Sequence record: ON528741
DNA from: Shigella phage ESh31
DNA: 64,000 bases
Strand: one strand, 5' to 3'
Position numbers and translations under genes: made by a program
Shown here: positions 1,640-37,726 of the stretch, piece by piece
How the letters are laid out: every line of letters begins with the position of its first letter
Numbering within the stretch: position 1 is the first letter of the stretch
The notes under the pieces: model-generated
Told to the model about the DNA's origin: nothing
Database searches by the model: none
Seen by the model: the letters and a program-made list of their open reading frames with translations, nothing else

Positions 1640-2608
1640 ATGAAAACTGTAACTATCAATAAGGGTATCTACTTTGGCAAAGAAATCTCTGGAACTTTTG
1701 AACTCTTAGGTGAGTGGTTCCCTGATAATGCTCCAGTAGATGCACAGGGAGATGGTAAAGTTTTTGTTGAAATTGACGGTAAGCGTCGCGGTGTTTGGGT
1801 TTACAAATCAGACATTTCATATGATGGTGTAAAAGTTGAAGAAGTTAAAGAATCGTATGAAGATATGAAAACCCGCATTAATAAAAGATTTAATGTTATG
1901 GGAATGATGACGAATGGTATTATTAACGGAAACATTCGTTCATTAATTATCTCGGGAGCAGCAGGTATTGGTAAAACGTATTCTTTAGATAAAGCTTTAA
2001 ATAAAGCAAATGATATTGGATACATTGAATATAAAAGCATTAATGGTAAAATCTCTGGTATCGGTCTTTATGAACAGCTTTGGAATAATCGTGAAGAGAA
2101 TTCTGTCCTTTTGATTGATGATGTGGATGTTTTCTCTGATATGGACATTCTTAATCTTCTGAAAGCTGCTCTGGACACTGGAGAGACCCGTAAAGTCTGC
2201 TGGAGCACCGCATCTTCTTACTTAGAAGAAAAAGGCATTGAGCGTGAGTTTGAATTTAAAGGAACGATTGTTTTTATCACAAACGTTGACATTGACCGCG
2301 AATTAGACCGTGGTACTAAACTTGCTCCACATTTACAAGCATTAGTGTCCCGCTCAGTTTATTTGGATTTGGGTGTTCACACTAATGAAGAAATTATGGT
2401 CAGGGTTGAAGATGTTATTCTTTCAACTGACATGATGCAAAAGCGCGGTCTTTCTGATGAAGAAACTTATAAAGCATTATCATGGATGAAAGTCAATGTT
2501 AATCGTTTACGCAATGTTTCACTACGTACTGCGCTTTATCTTGCTGACTTTATTATGACCGACAAAAACGGTTGGGAAGAAATCGCTGAGGTTACTCTTC
2601 TGAAATAA
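1640..2608 (+). CDS. P-loop (AAA-like) ATPase (T4 nrdC.10-position ORF)
   Basis: 322 aa; Walker A GAAGIGKT, Walker B LLIDDVD, sensor-like FITNV; AAGGAG RBS. Confidence 0.55.
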   Translation: MKTVTINKGIYFGKEISGTFELLGEWFPDNAPVDAQGDGKVFVEIDGKRRGVWVYKSDISYDGVKVEEVKESYEDMKTRINKRFNVMGMMTNGIINGNIRSLIISGAAGIGKTYSLDKALNKANDIGYIEYKSINGKISGIGLYEQLWNNREENSVLLIDDVDVFSDMDILNLLKAALDTGETRKVCWSTASSYLEEKGIEREFEFKGTIVFITNVDIDRELDRGTKLAPHLQALVSRSVYLDLGVHTNEEIMVRVEDVILSTDMMQKRGLSDEETYKALSWMKVNVNRLRNVSLRTALYLADFIMTDKNGWEEIAEVTLLK

Positions 2609-2709
2609 TTCATAAGAGGATTTCTATGACAAAAAGGCAGTTCAGAAATAGATTATATGGACTGCCATTAAAAAGATGACTAGAATTAAACTGGTAAATG
2701 GAGGTAGTG

Positions 2710-3012
2710 ATGTTATACTCAAAGGCTCGTGAAATTTACGAAACTAAAATTAAAGAAGCAGTATTTCAGTTCGCAACAACGATGCGATGGACAAATGATT
2801 GGGAGTATTCAAAAAATCATAAGAAGCCCATGGTGACAAGAAAGGCTCATATGTTAGTGTTAATAGACCGTGAGCAGATTAAAGCCCGAGAAGCCCTCCA
2901 GAATCATAAAAAGGCTGCCTTTGAATGGTTTATGGATAACACTGCTCCTGAGACTAAGAAAGCAGTGAGTGCGTGGTTCAGTGGAAAAAATTGTGAAAGA
3001 AGTTTCTTTTAG
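2710..3012 (+). CDS. hypothetical protein (100 aa)
   Basis: Internal ATG at 2710 preceded by GGAGGT RBS; the track's upstream ATG at 2698 lacks an RBS. Confidence 0.4.
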   Translation: MLYSKAREIYETKIKEAVFQFATTMRWTNDWEYSKNHKKPMVTRKAHMLVLIDREQIKAREALQNHKKAAFEWFMDNTAPETKKAVSAWFSGKNCERSFF

Positions 3013-3014
3013 TT

Positions 3015-3072
3015 GTTTACAAGACCGTTCCTCTGTGGTACTATACAACTATCAACTACGGAGGAACACAAA
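3015..3072 (+). promoter_or_regulatory. early promoter/leader cassette (PeSL-like)
   Basis: GTTTAC -35, GTGGTACTATAC -10 region, conserved leader CAACTATCAACTACGGAGGAAC ending at the ATG 3073. Confidence 0.5.
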
Positions 3073-3655: not shown

Positions 3656-4063
3656 ATGAAACAGTTGATAATTAAAAGATTGAATTTATTGATATGTTGT
3701 TTATGCGTAGTAGTTGCATATGGTTATTATGCTATTAATGATTATATGCATTATAAAGATTATGATGTTACTGTAGTTAATACCTTTACAGGAACTCAAG
3801 GAAAGGGGTCTAGTTTATCGTTTATTGCCGTATATGAACTAAATGACGGTTATAGATTTAGCGAATATATTTCACCGGAGATGTATTCTTCAATAGAAAA
3901 AGGTGATAATATTACTGTAAGTTTACGTCCTTTCGACGTAAAACAGACATTGTTTGATAATATTGTTTGGTTCTTTGGAATGGTATTAGTTCAATCTGTG
4001 TGTGGTGCTTATATAGTCTTTTCCATCTTATTCTGTATATTTAGTAAAATTGAAATTGAGTGA
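3656..4063 (+). CDS. hypothetical membrane protein
   Basis: 135 aa; hydrophobic N- and C-terminal segments. Confidence 0.4.
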   Translation: MKQLIIKRLNLLICCLCVVVAYGYYAINDYMHYKDYDVTVVNTFTGTQGKGSSLSFIAVYELNDGYRFSEYISPEMYSSIEKGDNITVSLRPFDVKQTLFDNIVWFFGMVLVQSVCGAYIVFSILFCIFSKIEIE

Positions 4064-4070
4064 GGAAAAT

Positions 4071-4958
4071 ATGTCAGTAGTAATTAATAATGTCAATGCA
4101 GTAATTAAATCTTTAGTTAATAAAAAATTGAATGAATGGACTGTACTTCGTCGTGGAGAGCCAGATAAATTTTTTCATAGATTTAACCCAACTTTGGATT
4201 TGAATGTTATTGACAGAGATGTTCATGCTGAAATTTTAGATAAATTTAAAGTTGATATTGGGTTTGGATTAGATAAACATTTACAACGAACAAACGGGTC
4301 TGGAATGGGTTTATCTAATCGCATCATGAAAGCCCTTAATAAAATTGGAGCGTTGTCTCGTATTAACGCGAGTGAAATTCTTCGCAATTATAATAAAGGA
4401 TATGACCTTTATGGTAGACTAATGCCGAAATTGTCATTCGATCAAATGATTGCGGATTTGTGGGAAAATCAACGACGATTATTAGCATTAGGCGCTCGAT
4501 TAGCTAAAGGTCTAGATAAACAAATGATTTTTAAGACCAATAATACAGAAGACCTTAAATGCTTTAAATTTAGTATTCGCGGAGATGATTATTACATCAG
4601 AGCTCGCTCTACAGATTATGTTAATATGGGGCATCATCTCTGTTTAGCTTTTGAAGTTTTAAAAGAAGCTGGAACATTAGAATATTCATCTGGTGCAAAA
4701 TGTCCAATTGGTTCAAGTTGTATTTTAATTTATCGCCCGGATGAATCCAGTTCAACTAAATTTCCTACAAAACCTGTACCAGTTCGTAGTAACGAAAAAC
4801 ATTCTGAACAAATTGATTATTTCAGTAAACAAATAGAAGAGCTAAATATTTCTATTCAACAATATGATGATGAAATATTCAGACTATCTGGATTGAGTAG
4901 TAAAGCTAAATCTGAACGTGAAAAATTAATTAAAATTGTTGATTTACTTAAATCTTAA
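4071..4958 (+). CDS. hypothetical protein with C-terminal coiled coil (nrdC-region family)
   Basis: 295 aa from the internal Met with GAGG RBS; C-terminal ~45 aa heptad-rich segment. Confidence 0.5.
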   Translation: MSVVINNVNAVIKSLVNKKLNEWTVLRRGEPDKFFHRFNPTLDLNVIDRDVHAEILDKFKVDIGFGLDKHLQRTNGSGMGLSNRIMKALNKIGALSRINASEILRNYNKGYDLYGRLMPKLSFDQMIADLWENQRRLLALGARLAKGLDKQMIFKTNNTEDLKCFKFSIRGDDYYIRARSTDYVNMGHHLCLAFEVLKEAGTLEYSSGAKCPIGSSCILIYRPDESSSTKFPTKPVPVRSNEKHSEQIDYFSKQIEELNISIQQYDDEIFRLSGLSSKAKSEREKLIKIVDLLKS

Positions 4959-4966
4959 GGAACACC

Positions 4967-5992
4967 ATGAAAACTCGTTCTCAAATTGAAGATATGGTTC
5001 GTAATGCCAGCTATACTCGTGATGTTATGACATTTTTGTGCCAAAATAATTTAGACCCTGATAAAGTTAATCGTGATATTCACTTTAAATATATGAATAG
5101 CAGTGAATGGTTACGTCATTTTAGTAAAGCGGGGTATATTACACAAATGACTGCTCGTGAGCAGCTCACCGATTTCTGTAAAACTATTGATTATAAAAAT
5201 CCTCTGTTTGTTCAAGGTGTTGGTCAGAGTAAGGTCGATTTATCATCTGGATTTTTCAATCCAAATCATTATCGTCTTGAATGGAGATTTATTGCTCTAT
5301 TCCGTAGACAATTAAAGCAAATTTTGTCTACTGCTAGTCGATTAAAAGGCTCTGATATTAACTTAAAGAATCTGAAATTTGATGGTTATACTCTTCAGAT
5401 GGAAGTAAGACCGTTAAAAGAAAATAATAGAACTGCACGAATTAGCTTTAAACCTAATACAAAAAATTCTCTTTCAATTTGTGAATGCCTTAAATCACAG
5501 CTGACAGAAGCATTTAAGTATATGGATGTTGTTGCTGCTGTTCAATCTAAGATTTTACCTCGTTTTGAACGATTTAAATTAGACACAACAACGTATGAAC
5601 TTGATATGATCGTTTCATTTAAATACGATTTTTTGAGAAAGGACGAAGTCCCGCAAGAGAAAAAGCAGGAAGTACAAGATAACTTAAATTTAAATTTATC
5701 CAATTACTTATCAAACGATCCTAAATTTTGGATGTATAGTTCAGGTAATAAAGATGCATGGAAATTTAATAAAGTGAATTTTCTTCCTATTGAAAATCCG
5801 AGTCTTAAACCTGTTGAAAAATGGCATGCAGATGCGATTGAGAAGTCTATCAAGGCAGTAGATGATGAACTCGTTAAAGCAACTAATGAAGTGCTAGAAG
5901 CTGAAAAGATGTTGGAAAAAGCTCAAGAAAAAGTCAAAAATCTTACGAAGCAACGTTCTAAACTGAACAATGCACTAAATGCACTGAACTAG
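4967..5992 (+). CDS. hypothetical protein with C-terminal coiled coil
   Basis: 341 aa; AAGGA RBS; C-terminal tail LEAEKMLEKAQEKVKNLTKQRSKLNNALNALN. Confidence 0.5.
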   Translation: MKTRSQIEDMVRNASYTRDVMTFLCQNNLDPDKVNRDIHFKYMNSSEWLRHFSKAGYITQMTAREQLTDFCKTIDYKNPLFVQGVGQSKVDLSSGFFNPNHYRLEWRFIALFRRQLKQILSTASRLKGSDINLKNLKFDGYTLQMEVRPLKENNRTARISFKPNTKNSLSICECLKSQLTEAFKYMDVVAAVQSKILPRFERFKLDTTTYELDMIVSFKYDFLRKDEVPQEKKQEVQDNLNLNLSNYLSNDPKFWMYSSGNKDAWKFNKVNFLPIENPSLKPVEKWHADAIEKSIKAVDDELVKATNEVLEAEKMLEKAQEKVKNLTKQRSKLNNALNALN

Positions 5993-6021
5993 TTTACATT
6001 GCCACAAGGATGTGGTATAAT
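5993..6021 (+). promoter_or_regulatory. early promoter with palindromic spacer
   Basis: GTTTAC -35, spacer containing CCACAAGGATGTGG, then GTATAAT -10; the same arrangement recurs at 51951 and 56210. Confidence 0.5.
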
Positions 6022-6049
6022 GTTCTTACTTTCTACTGAGGAGATTATT

Positions 6050-7051
6050 ATGACTCGTAACGAATATATCAAATCATTCAATAGCGTTATTGATGATAAA
6101 GCTATACCGATGTTTGGTCAAAATATCGTTCTTTCTATTATCAATCAATGGCTCAATAGTGTTGATGCAAGTATTGTTTCTTCTACTAAATTTATTCATG
6201 AAATTCGTAAAATTTCTAGCCGTGTAGATAAAGATGTTATCAAGAAAACCTTTAAAGAGTCTCGTCTTCTTTCATATTTGGTTAATCGGGATATTCTTGG
6301 TAATTTTGGGAAAGAAATTAAACGAACTAAAGATGTAGTAGGATATAATTGGTTCGGTGATGTTAATTCTTATCATCTTAATAATAAAGAAGACCCTGAG
6401 AATATTTTTACTCGTCGTTGGATTAGTAATTTCAAACTTTTCAAAGGACAAATTCTAAAATCAGCTTCTAAATTATGTTATGGCGATTATCGTCAAATTC
6501 ATCCTTTGGCTTCTGATATGATTATCGTAAAAGAATATGAGCTTGATGAAAATAAAGTAGCTATTTTTGTGAATTATGGATTTTTTACACCAAACGCTAG
6601 CCAAAAGAATATTAATAAATTTTTCTCAATTGCTAGCACTATAACTCGTCAGTTAGAGACTGCATTACTTTGTATGGAAACAGTAGAAAATATTCATACA
6701 TATCCTTTTAAGAATATATGCGGTTGGGAAGGATATAAAATTGTAATTAGCCTTCGTGAATTAAAGTGCGCGTACTCACCGACTGATAAAGAAATTTATC
6801 AACAAAAATGTGATGAAATTGTGAATACTCCTAAAGAAGAAACTACCCTTGAGGAACTAATGGATAATCTTGATGATTCACCTGAACCGGTAGAAATTCG
6901 TCCAGAAGTTATTGCACTAGAAAAAGCTTATAAAGAAGTTCTAGAAATTTCTAATAAAGCGCAGAAAGAATATGAGCAGGCTAAAAGGATTTGGGAAGAA
7001 TCTGTTAATCGTCTTGATCGTCTAGAACAAGCTTTACAGTTAATTAAGTAA
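6050..7051 (+). CDS. hypothetical protein with C-terminal coiled coil
   Basis: Start at internal Met (MTRNEY) after GAGGAG RBS; C-terminal heptad-rich tail. Confidence 0.5.
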   Translation: MTRNEYIKSFNSVIDDKAIPMFGQNIVLSIINQWLNSVDASIVSSTKFIHEIRKISSRVDKDVIKKTFKESRLLSYLVNRDILGNFGKEIKRTKDVVGYNWFGDVNSYHLNNKEDPENIFTRRWISNFKLFKGQILKSASKLCYGDYRQIHPLASDMIIVKEYELDENKVAIFVNYGFFTPNASQKNINKFFSIASTITRQLETALLCMETVENIHTYPFKNICGWEGYKIVISLRELKCAYSPTDKEIYQQKCDEIVNTPKEETTLEELMDNLDDSPEPVEIRPEVIALEKAYKEVLEISNKAQKEYEQAKRIWEESVNRLDRLEQALQLIK

Positions 7052-7103
7052 TTTAAAGCCAAGGATGGCTCGGAGTATAAATCATTAACCAAGTGAGAAG
7101 AAC

Positions 7104-8033
7104 ATGAAAACTCGTAAACATTATATTGATTATTTTGACAGTCTTATTACTAAACACCGTAATTATCAGATCGGGCACAGAGCAGTAATCAATAATATTC
7201 TTCGTGATTTCCTTCAATATGTTGGTCAGGAAAATCATATCTGTAAAGATACTCAAAACGCTTATTCTCATTCGTTAGGCAATTTGCTTGAATGGTTTAA
7301 ACGTTCTCGTATGTTATCTTCTACTGTAGCTCGTGATAACATTAAAAACTTTATGAAGCCGAGCTTCATTAAATCTGCGACATCTATAACTGATTTGGTT
7401 GAATTTACTATTGTTAACGATGTTAAAAAGACCCATTTGGCTGATTGGTTATCTACCATTCCTGAAACTAAATTTGCTGATAAATTTGCTTGTCAATTCA
7501 ATGACCAAGTGAATATGCTTTTTAAGCATGCTCGCAAGCTGTTTACTGCAGGCGATGACCGTACAAATACAGTTCATGTTAAGGACTGGGTTATTGCTGA
7601 TGAAGTAACACATAAGCCAGGTGGTTCATCAGTATTAATTAATATCCAGGTTCCTTATTATTACTCACGTAATCTTGGCACCATGACAGCTAAAGAAATT
7701 AATAAGCACAACAAAACTATTCGTTCGTTGTCTTATAAACTCCGCATGATGTTAAAAATTATGGACGTAGTGGAAATGTATGACGAAACCGAAGATAATG
7801 GTTCAATGTTATACAGTTCACGCATTCTAATTAAACTGAAGAACCCTAATACATATAAGACAGTTGTAAAAGAGCCTAAAGTAGAAAAGGTTGATAATCT
7901 GAGTGAAGAACGTGAATATCTCAATGCCCGTTTGATTGAAGTTGAAGCCCAAATTGCAGAACACACCAAATTGTTAAAAGCTCTTAATGCAAAAGCAAAT
8001 GGTTTACGTAATGCTATTGAGGTATTGAAATGA
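7104..8033 (+). CDS. hypothetical protein with C-terminal coiled coil
   Basis: 309 aa; C-terminal tail [42 protein letters not shown]. Confidence 0.5.
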   Translation: MKTRKHYIDYFDSLITKHRNYQIGHRAVINNILRDFLQYVGQENHICKDTQNAYSHSLGNLLEWFKRSRMLSSTVARDNIKNFMKPSFIKSATSITDLVEFTIVNDVKKTHLADWLSTIPETKFADKFACQFNDQVNMLFKHARKLFTAGDDRTNTVHVKDWVIADEVTHKPGGSSVLINIQVPYYYSRNLGTMTAKEINKHNKTIRSLSYKLRMMLKIMDVVEMYDETEDNGSMLYSSRILIKLKNPNTYKTVVKEPKVEKVDNLSEEREYLNARLIEVEAQIAEHTKLLKALNAKANGLRNAIEVLK

Positions 8034-8419
8034 AAAAGCGTTTATTAGAAGACATTGCAGCTTCAAGTAATTCCAGTTTAATTAAAATTATTATGGCTGG
8101 TGAGGAAGATGATATGGAAATGCGTGGAAAGATTCACGGCTGCGACGATTTAGATTTTAAACCTCCAGCATGGGATGCTATTATGGCTATGGTTGAACGA
8201 CGTGAAAGAGCTTCTAAAAACGTTCCTAATTGCCCTGAATGCGGTACTGAACAAGTTCAATTGATTAACTGGCGTAAACCAGAGCTTGAATATAAATGCC
8301 GTCAATGTAAACATAAATTCAGTAAGCATGCTCCGGAAATGGTTAAATTGCCTGACTCTACTGAGTTCTTTAAAGAACTTGTGAGTGTTCAACCAATGCC
8401 TAATAATATTTTGGATTAA
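8030..8419 (+). CDS. zinc-ribbon protein
   Basis: 129 aa; CPECG...CRQCKHKF Cys4 motif; ATGA overlap with the upstream gene. Confidence 0.45.
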
Positions 8420-8665: not shown

Positions 8666-8929
8666 ATGTTTAAAGTATATGGTTATGATAGCAACATTCA
8701 TAAATGCGTGTATTGCGATAATGCAAAACGTCTTTTGACTGTGAAGAAACAGCCGTTTGAATTTATCAACATTATGCCGGAAAAAGGTGTTTTTGATGAT
8801 GAGAAAATCGCTGAGCTTCTGACTAAACTAGGTCGTGATACTCAAATCGGCTTAACAATGCCCCAGGTATTTGCTCCTGATGGAAGTCATATTGGTGGAT
8901 TTGACCAACTGCGAGAATATTTTAAATGA
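8666..8929 (+). CDS. nrdC: NrdC thioredoxin/glutaredoxin
   Basis: 87 aa; CVYC active-site motif; matches T4 NrdC by length, sequence recollection and position upstream of gene 49/nrdD. Confidence 0.8.
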   Translation: MFKVYGYDSNIHKCVYCDNAKRLLTVKKQPFEFINIMPEKGVFDDEKIAELLTKLGRDTQIGLTMPQVFAPDGSHIGGFDQLREYFK

Positions 8930-10295: not shown

Positions 10296-10769
10296 ATGTT
10301 ATTGACTGGCAAATTATATAAAGAAGAAAAACAGAAATTTTATGATGCACAAAACGGTAAATGCTTAATTTGCCAACGAGAACTAAATCCTGATGTTCAA
10401 GCTAATCACCTTGACCATGACCATGAATTAAATGGACCAAAAGCAGGAAAGGTACGTGGATTGCTTTGTAATCTCTGCAATGCCGCAGAAGGTCAAATGA
10501 AGTATAAATTTAATCGTTCTGGCTTAAAGGGACAAGGTGTTGATTATCTTGAATGGTTAGAAAATTTACTTACTTATTTAAAATCCGATTACACCCAAAA
10601 TAATATTCACCCTAACTTTGTTGGAGATAAATCAAAGGAATTTTCTCGTTTAGGAAAAGAGGAAATGATGGCTGAGATGCTTCAAAGAGGATTTGAATAT
10701 AATGAATCTGACACCAAAACACAATTAATAGCTTCATTTAAGAAGCAGCTTAGAAAGAGTTTAAAATGA
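10296..10769 (+). CDS. 49: endonuclease VII (Holliday junction resolvase)
   Basis: 157 aa; near-identical to T4 gp49 as I recall it (MLLTGKLYKEEKQKFYDAQNGKCLICQ...); Cys-rich zinc site. Confidence 0.85.
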   Translation: MLLTGKLYKEEKQKFYDAQNGKCLICQRELNPDVQANHLDHDHELNGPKAGKVRGLLCNLCNAAEGQMKYKFNRSGLKGQGVDYLEWLENLLTYLKSDYTQNNIHPNFVGDKSKEFSRLGKEEMMAEMLQRGFEYNESDTKTQLIASFKKQLRKSLK

Positions 10770-35237: not shown

Positions 35238-35531
35238 ATGAAAAAATTTATTTTTGCTACAATTTTTACTTTGGCTTCTTGTGCTGCTCAGCCTGCTATG
35301 GCAGGTTATGATAAAGATTTGTGTGAATGGTCTATGACTGCAGATCAGACTGAAGTTGAAACTCAAATTGAAGCGGATATTATGAATATCGTTGAGCGTG
35401 ATCGTCCTGAAATGAAAGCTGAAGTACAAAAACAGCTTAAGTCTGGTGGTGTAATGCAGTATAATTATGTTCTGTATTGCGATAAAAACTTTAATAACAA
35501 AAATATCGTAACCGAAATCACAGGTGAATAA
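35238..35531 (+). CDS. sp: periplasmic protein Spackle
   Basis: 97 aa with signal peptide MKKFIFATIFTLASCAAQPAMA; length and position match T4 sp (61.3). Confidence 0.7.
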   Translation: MKKFIFATIFTLASCAAQPAMAGYDKDLCEWSMTADQTEVETQIEADIMNIVERDRPEMKAEVQKQLKSGGVMQYNYVLYCDKNFNNKNIVTEITGE

Positions 35532-35532
35532 T

Positions 35533-36171
35533 ATGATTTATTATATGCACAAAAATCCACCGTTTAAATACGGTAAATTTCCTGATGCACAATGTTATAA
35601 TATAACGCCTGATGAAAATAACCGTGGATATCTTATTGGCACAATTTTTGTAATTGTTAAAGATAACGAAATCGTTGCCTGGGCAGATTTTAAAGGTACA
35701 ACACATGATGTTAATCCGGTGCCTTTCACATATTACAATATAATGGATTTGGCATATGATTATAATTGGTTTAATCATGACACGTTGGCTCATATTCATA
35801 TTGAAGGTGTAGGATTTGACATCTCTTATTCTAGCTACTCATTGTGTCCTATGAGTCGGGCTCATAAAGAACCTGAATATTTTTCATTTAGGAAACGTGT
35901 AAACTTTAAACGCAACACAGAGTATGTCGGTGGAATCTTTGTTAAAGATAATCGAATTATTCGTATTAATTATCCTTTGAGCGTTAGTCAAAAAGATATT
36001 GATGTTGATTTAGATTTCACTGAAAATAATATTAATCATATTGCTTCTGTGTATTTTGGTATCGATCACAAAATTGTAATATGTGGATATGAATTACCGT
36101 TTGAAGAACAGCCTAAAGTAAAAGTTTCTATTGACGATCAAATTTTTAATGCTTTTATGAATAAAGGTTAA
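35533..36171 (+). CDS. hypothetical protein (212 aa) with conserved C-terminal tail
   Basis: Ends in SIDDQIFNAFMNKG, shared with the next ORF. Confidence 0.45.
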   Translation: MIYYMHKNPPFKYGKFPDAQCYNITPDENNRGYLIGTIFVIVKDNEIVAWADFKGTTHDVNPVPFTYYNIMDLAYDYNWFNHDTLAHIHIEGVGFDISYSSYSLCPMSRAHKEPEYFSFRKRVNFKRNTEYVGGIFVKDNRIIRINYPLSVSQKDIDVDLDFTENNINHIASVYFGIDHKIVICGYELPFEEQPKVKVSIDDQIFNAFMNKG

Positions 36172-36172
36172 T

Positions 36173-36529
36173 ATGTATAGTTCTGAATTTTCATATTTAA
36201 AAATGGAAAAAATTTCATACGATTTTATAGATGAAAAGGTTTATTACAGTTTCCATGAACCACGTTTTAATAGTGAGGTTGGGTTTATTGTAGTAAAAGA
36301 CAATTTCATTTTAAAGATATATTCGGCATTAAAGGATTTTCACTACGAAAATATTAACCTAAAATTTAATAAAGAAAACGTTCGTAATTGCGCAGTAACA
36401 ATTACAGGAAATAAAGGTACATGTGTTATGCTATCCGATGAAATTAATGATTTGCTAAATGATGCAGAAAAAGTTGCTATTCCATCGATTGATGACCAAA
36501 TTTTTAATGCTTTTATGAATAGAGGTTAA
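36173..36529 (+). CDS. hypothetical protein (118 aa) with conserved C-terminal tail
   Basis: Ends in SIDDQIFNAFMNRG; the last ~45 nt are a near copy of the end of the preceding ORF. Confidence 0.45.
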   Translation: MYSSEFSYLKMEKISYDFIDEKVYYSFHEPRFNSEVGFIVVKDNFILKIYSALKDFHYENINLKFNKENVRNCAVTITGNKGTCVMLSDEINDLLNDAEKVAIPSIDDQIFNAFMNRG

Positions 36530-36530
36530 T

Positions 36531-36695
36531 ATGAAAACATATAAAGAATTTATTAAAGAAGATATGGTAGCTGGAGATTCAGGTGGTAATCCTGAAAATA
36601 TCTCTACTGGAACAACATCAGGTGCTGTAGTAAATAAAGGTCCTGAGCAGATTCCTAAAAAGAAAAAAGAGGAATCTAAAGAAAAAGAAGAGTAA
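36531..36695 (+). CDS. hypothetical small low-complexity protein (54 aa)
   Basis: Gly/Thr/Ser-rich then Lys/Glu-rich; below the track cutoff. Confidence 0.3.
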   Translation: MKTYKEFIKEDMVAGDSGGNPENISTGTTSGAVVNKGPEQIPKKKKEESKEKEE

Positions 36696-36697
36696 AA

Positions 36698-37726
36698 ATG
36701 TCATCAATACCTTGGATTGATAATGAGTTTGCATATCGTGCATTGGCTCATTTACCTAAATTCACACAAGTAAATAATAGTTCAACTTTTAAATTACGTT
36801 TTAGATGCCCTGTTTGTGGAGATTCAAAAACCGACCAGAATAAAGCCCGTGGATGGTATTATGGTGATAATAATGAAGGAAATATTCATTGTTATAACTG
36901 TAACTATCATGCACCAATCGGAATATATTTAAAGGAGTTTGAACCTGATTTATATCGTGAGTATATCTTTGAAATAAGAAAAGAAAAAGGTAAAAGTCGT
37001 CCAGTAGAAAAACCTAAAGAACTTCCTAAACAACTTGAGAAGAAAATAATTAAATCTCTTCCGTCATGTGTTAGATTAGATAAACTGGCGGAAGACCATC
37101 CAATTATAAAATATGTAAAAGCTCGTTGTATTCCAAAGGATAAATGGAAATATCTTTGGTTTACAACCGAATGGCCTAAATTAGTTAATAGCATAGCACC
37201 AGGAACATACAAAAAGGAAATTTCTGAGCCTCGTCTTGTTATTCCAATTTATAATGCTAATGGAAAAGCTGAGTCTTTTCAAGGACGTGCATTAAAGAAA
37301 GATGCTCCCCAAAAATATATCACCATCAAAGCTTATCCTGAAGCAACAAAAATCTATGGAGTCGAACGAGTTAAAGATGGTGATGTATATGTTCTAGAAG
37401 GACCTATAGATTCACTTTTTATTGAAAATGGTATAGCTATTACGGGTGGTCAATTAGACCTAGAAGTTGTTCCATTTAAAGATAGACGAGTGTGGGTTTT
37501 AGATAATGAACCTCGTCACCCTGACACTATCAAACGAATGACTAAATTAGTTGATGCAGGAGAAAGGGTTATGTTTTGGGATAAATCTCCCTGGAAATCA
37601 AAAGATGTCAATGATATGATTAGAAAGGAAGGTGCAACCCCTGAACAAATTATGGAATATATGAAAAATAATATTGCCCAGGGGTTGATGGCTAAAATGC
37701 GGCTATCTAAATATGCCAAGATTTAA
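36698..37726 (+). CDS. 61: DNA primase gp61
   Basis: 342 aa; N-terminal zinc ribbon CPVCGDS...CYNC; TOPRIM-like region. Confidence 0.9.
   Translation: MSSIPWIDNEFAYRALAHLPKFTQVNNSSTFKLRFRCPVCGDSKTDQNKARGWYYGDNNEGNIHCYNCNYHAPIGIYLKEFEPDLYREYIFEIRKEKGKSRPVEKPKELPKQLEKKIIKSLPSCVRLDKLAEDHPIIKYVKARCIPKDKWKYLWFTTEWPKLVNSIAPGTYKKEISEPRLVIPIYNANGKAESFQGRALKKDAPQKYITIKAYPEATKIYGVERVKDGDVYVLEGPIDSLFIENGIAITGGQLDLEVVPFKDRRVWVLDNEPRHPDTIKRMTKLVDAGERVMFWDKSPWKSKDVNDMIRKEGATPEQIMEYMKNNIAQGLMAKMRLSKYAKI

Follow-up and report, generated by a model that had tools for sequence, protein, structure and literature searches.

A paralogous family of nrdC-locus proteins with constrained coiled-coil-type tails in T4-like phages, probably directed against host defences

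What is the role of four neighboring phage genes whose products all end in the same kind of helix, and are the parts in front of that helix related to one another? The question is raised by positions 4071-8033 of the window, as we call the whole stretch of 64,000 nucleotides (nt) of Shigella phage ESh31 (sequence record ON528741) analysed here. Four adjacent open reading frames (ORFs) on the + strand, with ATG starts and good Shine-Dalgarno sequences, encode proteins of 295, 341, 333 and 309 amino acids (aa). Over this region identity is 99.9% with Shigella phage SHBML-50-1 and ~92% with T4, and the region matches 656 phage records, almost all of them from Tequatrovirus and its relatives. The window belongs to a Tequatrovirus, and the four genes are the nrdC.6, nrdC.5, nrdC.4 and nrdC.3 of a T4-like phage, the names being those of the annotated T4 record U76612.1. 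A preliminary description of the DNA, made from the sequence alone, had pictured these proteins as unrelated-looking N-terminal regions, effector domains exchangeable on a common stalk, with unknown functions. The account that we favor, and consider reasonably probable, is that they constitute an early anti-defence family, confined to the Straboviridae, which arose by tandem duplication and in which a body conferring target specificity is followed by a constrained coiled-coil tail.

The tails themselves were correctly recognized in the preliminary description. ORF analysis, a heptad score and AlphaFold2 (AF2) models agree that each of the four consecutive genes encodes a C-terminal tail of coiled-coil type, with helices of 45-56 residues, and they support the shared architecture of a globular body, a flexible linker and a heptad helix of ~45-55 residues. 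The peptides quoted there are present as the C-termini of nrdC.5 and nrdC.3, and the range of protein lengths given, 295-335 aa, holds at its lower end only, since nrdC.5 has 341 aa. Coiled-coil propensity was assessed with a home-made simple matrix applied to 28-residue windows in all seven registers, for which GCN4-p1 gives 17.3, T4 lysozyme 10.0 and myoglobin 8.4. All four tails show such propensity, with scores of 14.4-17.9 that lie near that of GCN4-p1 (nrdC.5 17.9, the maximum of the window; nrdC.6 15.8; nrdC.3 15.3; nrdC.4 14.4). If the 64 + strand ORFs with 100 aa or more are ordered by this score, nrdC.5 comes 1st, nrdC.6 5th, nrdC.3 6th and nrdC.4 7th, the other places in the top seven being taken by nrdC.8, gp47 and the Rad50-like gp46, whose coiled coil is known. 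When scoring is confined to the last 40 residues, over 85 ORFs, the first four places go to nrdC.5, nrdC.8, nrdC.3 and nrdC.4, and nrdC.6 falls to 9th, as its best heptad window is situated a little further upstream. Shuffling of the last 50 residues alone, which controls for composition, attained the real score in 1 of 500 shuffles for nrdC.6, 3 for nrdC.5, 7 for nrdC.3 and 28 for nrdC.4, which is the weakest heptad case of the four.

Each tail follows a single uninterrupted register, in which the a/d positions are hydrophobic in about 75-93% of cases (93% in nrdC.5, 86% in nrdC.6) versus 19-31% elsewhere. Column entropy rises from a/d through e/g to b/c/f (0.45, 0.60 and 0.96 in nrdC.6; 0.58, 0.72 and 0.89 in nrdC.4; 0.64, 1.08 and 1.09 in nrdC.5), which is the signature of a coiled-coil core rather than that of a surface contacted all round. 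The tails also share, in the same register, a terminal pattern that reads roughly [R/K]-x-x-L-x-x-A/I-h-x-h-L-K, and the stretch 'WEESxNRLDRLEQALxLxK' is almost invariant among nrdC.4 homologues with an overall identity of just 40-50%. The tail feature is real and far beyond chance, and it extends to a fifth gene, nrdC.8, whose tail scores 16.2 and is 2nd of the 85 ORFs.

The supposed lack of relationship among the N-terminal regions did not survive closer comparison: profile-profile alignment, shared motifs, AF2 models and Foldseek searches all point to one divergent paralogous family. For this purpose family alignments were built from database homologues and fetched loci. The closest pair is nrdC.3 and nrdC.4 (blastp E 4.6e-8, hhalign 98%), both of which match the same profile, phrog_1435, over its full length (E 8.4e-117 and 3.5e-168, respectively). 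The precomputed Pfam family PF26897 is found on every nrdC.4 homologue and also on the chimeric protein P0056, the C-terminal part of which is nrdC.3. Full-length matches were likewise obtained for nrdC.6 to phrog_2257 (E 1.5e-152) and for nrdC.5 to DUF7235 (411.2 bits, the cut-off being 30, with residues 1-341 covering positions 1-307 of the 307 in the profile), nrdC.5 matching phrog_2351 as well (E 1e-171). Across these families nrdC.5 is collinear with nrdC.4 (hhalign E 3.6e-5, residues 46-341 versus 62-333). The bodies were then compared with the last ~60 residues cut off, so that coiled-coil composition had no input. The tail-less hhalign scores were 33.7-34.3 for nrdC.4-nrdC.5, depending on the query alignment, 28.0 for nrdC.5-nrdC.6 and 27.2 for nrdC.3-nrdC.5. 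Column-shuffle nulls, computed for nrdC.4-nrdC.5, nrdC.5-nrdC.6 and nrdC.4-nrdC.6, lie at ~14-15 +/- 2.2 (14.2 +/- 2.2 for nrdC.5-nrdC.6), and none of 40 shuffles attained the score of either of the first two pairs; the nrdC.4-nrdC.6 score is borderline (19.6 versus a null maximum of 19.4).

Two motifs align across the four families. One reads K-x-G/S-x-L-S-x-x-x-A/N-R-E/D-x-L-x-D/N-F; the other, [IL][LF]xxA[SR][KR]L..GD, lies in a helix and takes the form ILSTASRLKGSD in nrdC.5, ILKSASKLCYGD in nrdC.4, LFKHARKLFTAGD in nrdC.3 and LLALGARLAKGLD in nrdC.6. When the families were run against a small collection of locus ORFs, the best sub-threshold hidden Markov model (HMM) matches of each fell mostly on the other paralogues. 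We conclude that nrdC.3, nrdC.4, nrdC.5 and nrdC.6 are old tandem duplicates, a conclusion that is well supported for nrdC.3, nrdC.4 and nrdC.5 and moderately so for the membership of nrdC.6. The notion of exchangeable effector domains on a common stalk fails along with that of unrelated bodies: the tails are paralogue-specific in sequence and have diverged along with the bodies, which speaks for duplication of whole genes rather than for domain swapping.

Predicted structures are in line with this kinship. AF2 monomer models were examined for nrdC.4 (mean predicted local distance difference test score, pLDDT, 82.6) and nrdC.5 (mean pLDDT 68.5). The former has a helical N-domain (residues 1-84), an alpha/beta domain (88-235), a linker (274-283) and a helix (285-332), and the latter a disordered linker at 226-278 followed by a lone terminal helix at 285-340. 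In both, the elements come in the same order, namely an N-terminal helical bundle, units of a beta-hairpin plus a long helix, the linker and the terminal helix. A Foldseek search of BFVD with the nrdC.4 model retrieved the NrdC.6 of phage JS10 (E 5.4e-5, probability 1.0, template modelling (TM) score about 0.4), together with ~15 uncharacterised proteins of 280-375 aa from T4-like phages of Acinetobacter, Pectobacterium, Erwinia, Serratia, Yersinia, Klebsiella and Aeromonas. Three BFVD targets, from phages Cronus, PS2 and fHe-Yen9-01, came up with either model, nrdC.4 or nrdC.5, at probability 1.0. The TM-scores of the BFVD matches are just 0.3-0.5, which is due to the flexible tails. Matches to domains of well-known enzymes, which the preliminary description had named as a possible refutation, were not found for the bodies in Pfam, NCBIfam or PDB. 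A relationship to tail completion or tail terminator proteins was considered and rejected, as the Foldseek matches concerned are weak (E 5e-3 to 0.08, TM 0.3-0.4, against a threshold of TM >0.5), and the label 'tail sheath stabilizer' given to nrdC.5 in T6 is a propagated annotation error.

Body and tail have evolved at different rates. The window proteins nrdC.10, nrdC.9, nrdC.8, nrdC.1 and nrdC are 96-100% identical to those of T2, T6 and Bas39; for nrdC.5 and nrdC.4 identity to T2 and T6 is 90-92%, and for nrdC.3 it is 61%. Most of the genes have similar synonymous divergence (dS, 0.1-0.2), and the surplus seen in nrdC.5 and nrdC.4 is therefore non-synonymous. The ratio of non-synonymous to synonymous divergence (dN/dS) is 0.25-0.32 in the bodies of these two genes (0.28-0.30 for nrdC.4). 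In the tails it is 0 for nrdC.4 and, for nrdC.5, 0-0.03 in comparison with T6, T2 and one IMG/VR locus and 0.15 with a second IMG/VR locus. Among the neighbors, nrdC.10, nrdC.9, nrdC.8, nrdC, gp49 and nrdD have values of 0-0.14, and nrdC.1, nrdC.2 and nrdC.7 values of 0.12-0.34, so that the bodies of nrdC.5 and nrdC.4 are not unique in their raised dN/dS. In every family conservation is highest over the last 45 residues, and within the nrdC.5 and nrdC.4 orthologous groups the tail is under much stronger purifying selection than the body. The nrdC.3 of the window is a separate case, being 61% identical to the NrdC.3 of T4, T2 and T6 (dS ~1) and 78-81% identical to the RB69 type; it is a replaced allele in an otherwise T4-like backbone. 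There are three nrdC.3 alleles, 60-80% identical to one another; for alleles with a body identity of 59-61%, the identity of the tail is 78-84%.

Compared with the T4 proteins, identity is 95.0% for nrdC.5 (over 339 residues), 95.2% for nrdC.4, 98.9% for nrdC.8, 61% for nrdC.3 and 93% for nrdC.6, the last figure being affected by a frameshift at the tail in the old T4 record U76612.1; the order of the genes at the locus is the same as in that record. The NrdC.6 given there (positions 6623-7450, our locus L015) has 275 aa, its coiled-coil tail being encoded in another frame. As a later T4 annotation assigns 891 nt to nrdC.6, the frameshift of the old record is probably a sequencing error.

As regards function, the statement that none is known for these genes is outdated. 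When T4 nrdC.5 is supplied from a plasmid, a T4 deletion mutant regains the ability to plate on cells that carry dsr1, a SIR2 gene of ECOR17 (PMC9391042), and the Bas37 orthologue of nrdC.8 acts against Druantia III (bioRxiv 10.1101/2025.11.20.689424). The anti-Dsr1 activity is known for the T4 allele of NrdC.5, of which the window protein is the orthologue by identity and locus. Major capsid proteins of phages are reported to be what the TPR sensor of Dsr1 recognises (PMC12803255), which suggests that NrdC.5 may block this capsid sensor; no follow-up paper on the mechanism of NrdC.5 was found in the literature searched. In addition, nrdC.1 has been identified as an inhibitor of Septu and bas37_0203 as the inhibitor of Druantia III, the latter being a 528-nt gene at the nrdC.8 position with a log2 fold change (log2FC) of -5.8 on CFE303 (10.1101/2025.11.20.689424 and its gene table). 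By synteny and size, the nrdC.8 of the window can be taken as the orthologue of bas37_0203. Its body has no detectable sequence relation to the other four bodies by profile-profile or sub-threshold HMM comparison. With nrdC.5 directed against Dsr1, nrdC.8 against Druantia III and nrdC.1 against Septu, the nrdC.1-nrdC.8 block emerges as an anti-defence island. The genes nrdC.2 to nrdC.11 of T4, and bas37_0196 to 0209 of Bas37, are non-essential (10.1101/2025.11.20.689424). The GenBank label 'thioredoxin' borne by nrdC.1 to nrdC.6 is positional and a propagated annotation error: the proteins have no thioredoxin family match in Pfam, NCBIfam or PDB, and the topology of the nrdC.4 AF2 model differs.

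The promoters indicate early expression. The site between nrdC.5 and nrdC.4 matches the T4 early consensus at 11 of 12 positions and has an extended -10; its position is that of 'early promoter 50.0' of U76612.1. A -35/-10 pair is annotated in the same T4 record at the place equivalent to the promoter-like site ahead of nrdC.8. A further element, TATAAAT at 7075-7081 on the + strand, precedes the start codon of nrdC.3 by 23 nt and lacks one base of the T4 late-promoter consensus TATAAATA.

By sequence, each of the families is tiny and limited to T4-like phages. A profile of nrdC.4 and nrdC.3, run against 1.84 billion representative proteins, found nine at E <= 0.001, each a member of the family or a fragment, and did not reach nrdC.5 or nrdC.6 there; the families are thus linked by profile-profile and structural comparison only. 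A related-locus search with nrdC.3 returned only seven loci. The locus is syntenic, between nrdC and nrdC.10, out to Acinetobacter phage Acj61, a member of another subfamily. In that phage p120 (330 aa) and its neighbor p121 (304 aa) stand between nrdC and nrdC.10 (locus L014, positions 35452-37472, - strand). Their tails reach heptad scores of 17.9 and 16.8, respectively, p120 has the length of the BFVD match E5E4A1, and the two belong to the same family at the same locus. Gene content varies, as the preliminary description had held for this region of T4-like phages, and comparison of genomes revealed gene loss, split genes, fusions and the nrdC.3 alleles described above. Gaprivervirus VR25 has nrdC.8, nrdC.6, nrdC.5 and nrdC.4 and lacks nrdC.3; RB69 has nrdC.8, nrdC.6, nrdC.5 and nrdC.3 and lacks nrdC.4. 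In T2 (locus L010, 3026-3859 and 5007-5946), two ORFs stand in place of nrdC.6 and two in place of nrdC.4, these being frameshifts or pseudogenes. Natural deletions that connect the first part of nrdC.5 with the last part of nrdC.3 have generated nrdC.5::nrdC.3 fusions in phage ACG-C40 (locus L008, 5805-6216) and in P0056, where the junction falls at a short common 'FN..VN' stretch and the nrdC.3 tail stays in frame. Individual genes show further peculiarities. The NrdC.6 of Shigella phage Sf25 (P0113, 378 aa) carries an internal tandem duplication of ~83 residues just before the tail. RB69 NrdC.5 as annotated (locus L009, 5829-6731, 300 aa) is devoid of a heptad tail, its C-terminus appearing frameshifted, and an RB69-like contig (L004) encodes a 319-aa NrdC.5 that retains the tail.

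How might such proteins work? On this account each has four parts, beginning with a helical bundle at the N-terminus, continuing with an alpha/beta domain and a disordered linker 10-50 residues long, and ending in an amphipathic helix of 45-56 residues in heptad register. The genes are transcribed early from T4-type early promoters and are dispensable on laboratory hosts. The fast-evolving body would bind and block one particular host immune protein, a step for which there is genetic support in the case of NrdC.5 and the SIR2/TPR protein Dsr1, and direct target binding by the bodies of all of NrdC.3-6 is what we infer. The slow-evolving tail would form a paralogue-specific coiled coil, most probably leading to homo-oligomerisation and hence to an oligomeric inhibitor, whose avidity would be higher for immune proteins that are oligomers themselves. 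Duplication and divergence at the locus may then have built up a small arsenal, each copy aimed at a different defence, and nrdC.3, nrdC.4 and nrdC.6 probably inhibit host defences other than that countered by nrdC.5. This account builds on the architecture, the paralogy, the selection pattern, the early promoters, the non-essentiality and the anti-Dsr1 phenotype of nrdC.5, each established here or in the literature. A more ambitious version, which we advance only tentatively, sees in the family a self-diversifying inhibitor scaffold: an ancestral gene made up of body, linker and coiled coil would have duplicated repeatedly at the nrdC locus, each copy being retargeted and the coiled coil supplying oligomeric avidity, with nrdC.8 as a shortened or convergent user. 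The targets would then be Dsr1 for NrdC.5 and further systems for NrdC.3, NrdC.4, NrdC.6 and the relatives in Acinetobacter, Erwinia, Serratia and Aeromonas phages.

Several observations weigh against the anti-defence account. The Bas37 orthologues of nrdC.3, nrdC.4 and nrdC.6 (bas37_0198, 0199 and 0201) showed no significant depletion in HIDEN-SEQ on CFT073, CFE299 and CFE303, the strongest effect being that of the nrdC.6 orthologue on CFT073 (log2FC -0.73, p 0.057, adjusted p 0.81); on these three clinical hosts the genes thus show no phenotype that would bear out the anti-defence roles proposed for them. The link of nrdC.6 to the family consists of profile scores at low hhalign probability (10%) and one Foldseek match, and confidence in the nrdC.5 model is no more than moderate (pLDDT 68.5). 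A body dN/dS of ~0.3 denotes relaxed or mixed selection and is no demonstration of positive selection. Finally, a lone amphipathic helix could pack on its own body or on a partner protein instead of forming a coiled coil.

Four other explanations were considered, none of which fits as well as an anti-defence arsenal. The constrained tail could be a docking helix that brings all the proteins to one common host or phage partner, at which the bodies then act. In its favor, the tails finish in a common register and have terminal patterns that are alike, they are more constrained than the bodies, and their type is kept in Acinetobacter phage Acj61 despite the different host. However, the a/d positions are the most conserved and b/c/f as variable as the body, which is the gradient of a coiled-coil core, shared descent can account for the terminal pattern, and there is no known candidate partner; we regard a docking role as rather improbable. 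Still less credence is due to a modular family created by shuffling unrelated effector domains onto a common oligomerisation or docking stalk. It would suit a set of adjacent genes with the same overall architecture, at a locus where recombination has occurred (the fusions in ACG-C40 and P0056, and the replaced nrdC.3 allele with dS ~1), and nrdC.8 does present a similar tail on a body that lacks detectable similarity to the others. But the bodies of nrdC.3, nrdC.4, nrdC.5 and nrdC.6 are homologous and collinear, each paralogue has its own tail in place of a shared sequence module, and the fusions seen are deletion products, not functional swaps, all of which makes domain exchange quite unlikely.

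Two further possibilities concern what the proteins do together or for what purpose. That they are not anti-defence proteins at all, and instead accessory proteins of host takeover or nucleotide metabolism, is an idea invited by the position of the genes next to nrdC, nrdD and nrdG and by the many records that label them thioredoxin; we think it very unlikely. Slighter yet is the chance that the paralogues join via their tails into one hetero-oligomeric, multi-headed complex. Helices alike in length and register, encoded by adjacent, co-transcribed early genes, would be compatible with it, but gene content varies freely (RB69 is without nrdC.4, T2 has disrupted nrdC.4 and nrdC.6, and VR25 is without nrdC.3). 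Plasmid-borne nrdC.5 alone moreover restored plating of the T4 deletion mutant on dsr1 cells, although the mutant may retain some of the neighboring genes, and in Bas37 insertions in nrdC.8 had a strong phenotype when insertions in nrdC.3-6 had none in the same host. A family of separate inhibitors produced by tandem duplication hence remains the explanation that we prefer.

Even in T4, the phage that has been studied most thoroughly, the majority of genes in the nrdC-mobD region are without an assigned function. The genes discussed here and the anti-Dsr1 role of nrdC.5 are already known. In the literature searched we found no description of the paralogy of nrdC.3-6, of the conserved coiled-coil tail and its selection pattern, of the same tail type in nrdC.8, or of the synteny out to Acinetobacter phages. 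Being paralogues of an anti-defence gene, nrdC.5, with which they share the constrained tail, nrdC.3, nrdC.4 and nrdC.6 pass from orphan ORFs to concrete anti-defence candidates, and through them one may be led to the defence systems that they target. For the neutralisation of Dsr1 by NrdC.5, a structural hypothesis results, that of an oligomeric binder consisting of body plus stalk. The variability of the locus between close phages would be explained as that of an arms-race gene family, and there may be practical value for the prediction of host range and the design of therapeutic T4-like phages.

Features of the nrdC locus in the window, by position
Feature	Position	Strand	Remarks
nrdC.10-like AAA protein	1640-2608	+	
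nrdC.9	2698-3012	+	
Promoter-like site before nrdC.8	3016-3044	+	heads the nrdC.8-nrdC.7-nrdC.6-nrdC.5 unit; 9/12 match with TG
nrdC.8-like, 175 aa	3073-3600	+	outside the four genes; C-terminal heptad helix at aa ~134-175
nrdC.7	3656-4063	+	predicted membrane protein with hydrophobic ends; annotated so in RB69 and T2
nrdC.6-like, 295 aa	4071-4958	+	phrog_2257; homologues with precomputed Pfam PF26899
nrdC.6 heptad tail, aa 246-295	4806-4955	+	Gly-containing break at 'LSGLSS'
nrdC.5-like, 341 aa	4967-5992	+	Pfam DUF7235 (PF23882)
nrdC.5 terminal helix, aa 285-340	5819-5986	+	AF2 model
T4-type early promoter, GTTTACA-17-TGgTATAAT	5993-6021	+	drives nrdC.4, nrdC.3 and the genes downstream
nrdC.4-like, 333 aa	6050-7051	+	phrog_1435; precomputed Pfam PF26897
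nrdC.4 terminal helix, aa 285-332	6902-7045	+	AF2 model
nrdC.3-like, 309 aa	7104-8033	+	phrog_1435; paralogue of nrdC.4
nrdC.3 heptad tail, aa 265-309	7896-8030	+	heptad score
nrdC.2	8030-8419	+	
nrdC.1, 80 aa	8422-8664	+	
nrdC thioredoxin	8666-8929	+	true NrdC thioredoxin, separate gene
gp49	10296-10769	+	
nrdD	from 10766	+	

Some of the neighboring genes deserve mention. The nrdC.10-like protein has weak matches to P-loop, AAA and STAND-NTPase families, all under the Pfam cut-offs, and its Bas37 orthologue showed a non-significant dip on CFT073 (log2FC -1.64). Ahead of the nrdC.10 promoter, at 1265-1284, there is a strong GC-rich hairpin whose 8-bp stem contains 6 G-C pairs and which is succeeded by a run of T on the + strand; it matches the terminator that the T4 annotation places behind nrdC.11. 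At the other end of the cluster, the start of nrdC.2 overlaps the stop codon of nrdC.3 (ATGA). The nrdC.2-like zinc-ribbon protein has 129 aa versus 104 aa in T4, with 76% identity and a different C-terminus.

Comparison with known systems places the family in context. The tails resemble GCN4-type two- to four-stranded coiled coils in that their heptads are unbroken over 6-8 repeats, their a/d positions are hydrophobic and the most conserved, their e/g positions are often charged, and their score is comparable; there are also weak profile matches of the tails to GCN4 and other coiled coils. They differ from these in the many Ala, Asn, Arg and Thr residues at core positions, and their self-association is a prediction. 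Bas37_0203 and T4 NrdC.1 are encoded at the same locus by early, non-essential genes that are conditionally required on one host, and nrdC.8 has the same type of tail; the nrdC.8 body is, however, half the size and has no detectable similarity to nrdC.3-6, and NrdC.1 is without such a tail. The closest precedent is T4 NrdC.5 (DUF7235) itself, of which the window has the orthologue and, in nrdC.4, nrdC.3 and nrdC.6, distant paralogues of the same architecture, although paralogy, coiled-coil tail and mechanism are not dealt with in the report of its activity (PMC9391042). A functional parallel to the NrdC.5-Dsr1 pair is offered by DSAD1 of phage SPbeta, which acts against DSR2 (PMC10973363, PMC10981675). 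While DSR2 senses the tail tube and the TPR of Dsr1 is reported to sense major capsid proteins, DSAD1 is likewise a phage protein that counters a defence-associated sirtuin, which it neutralises by binding.

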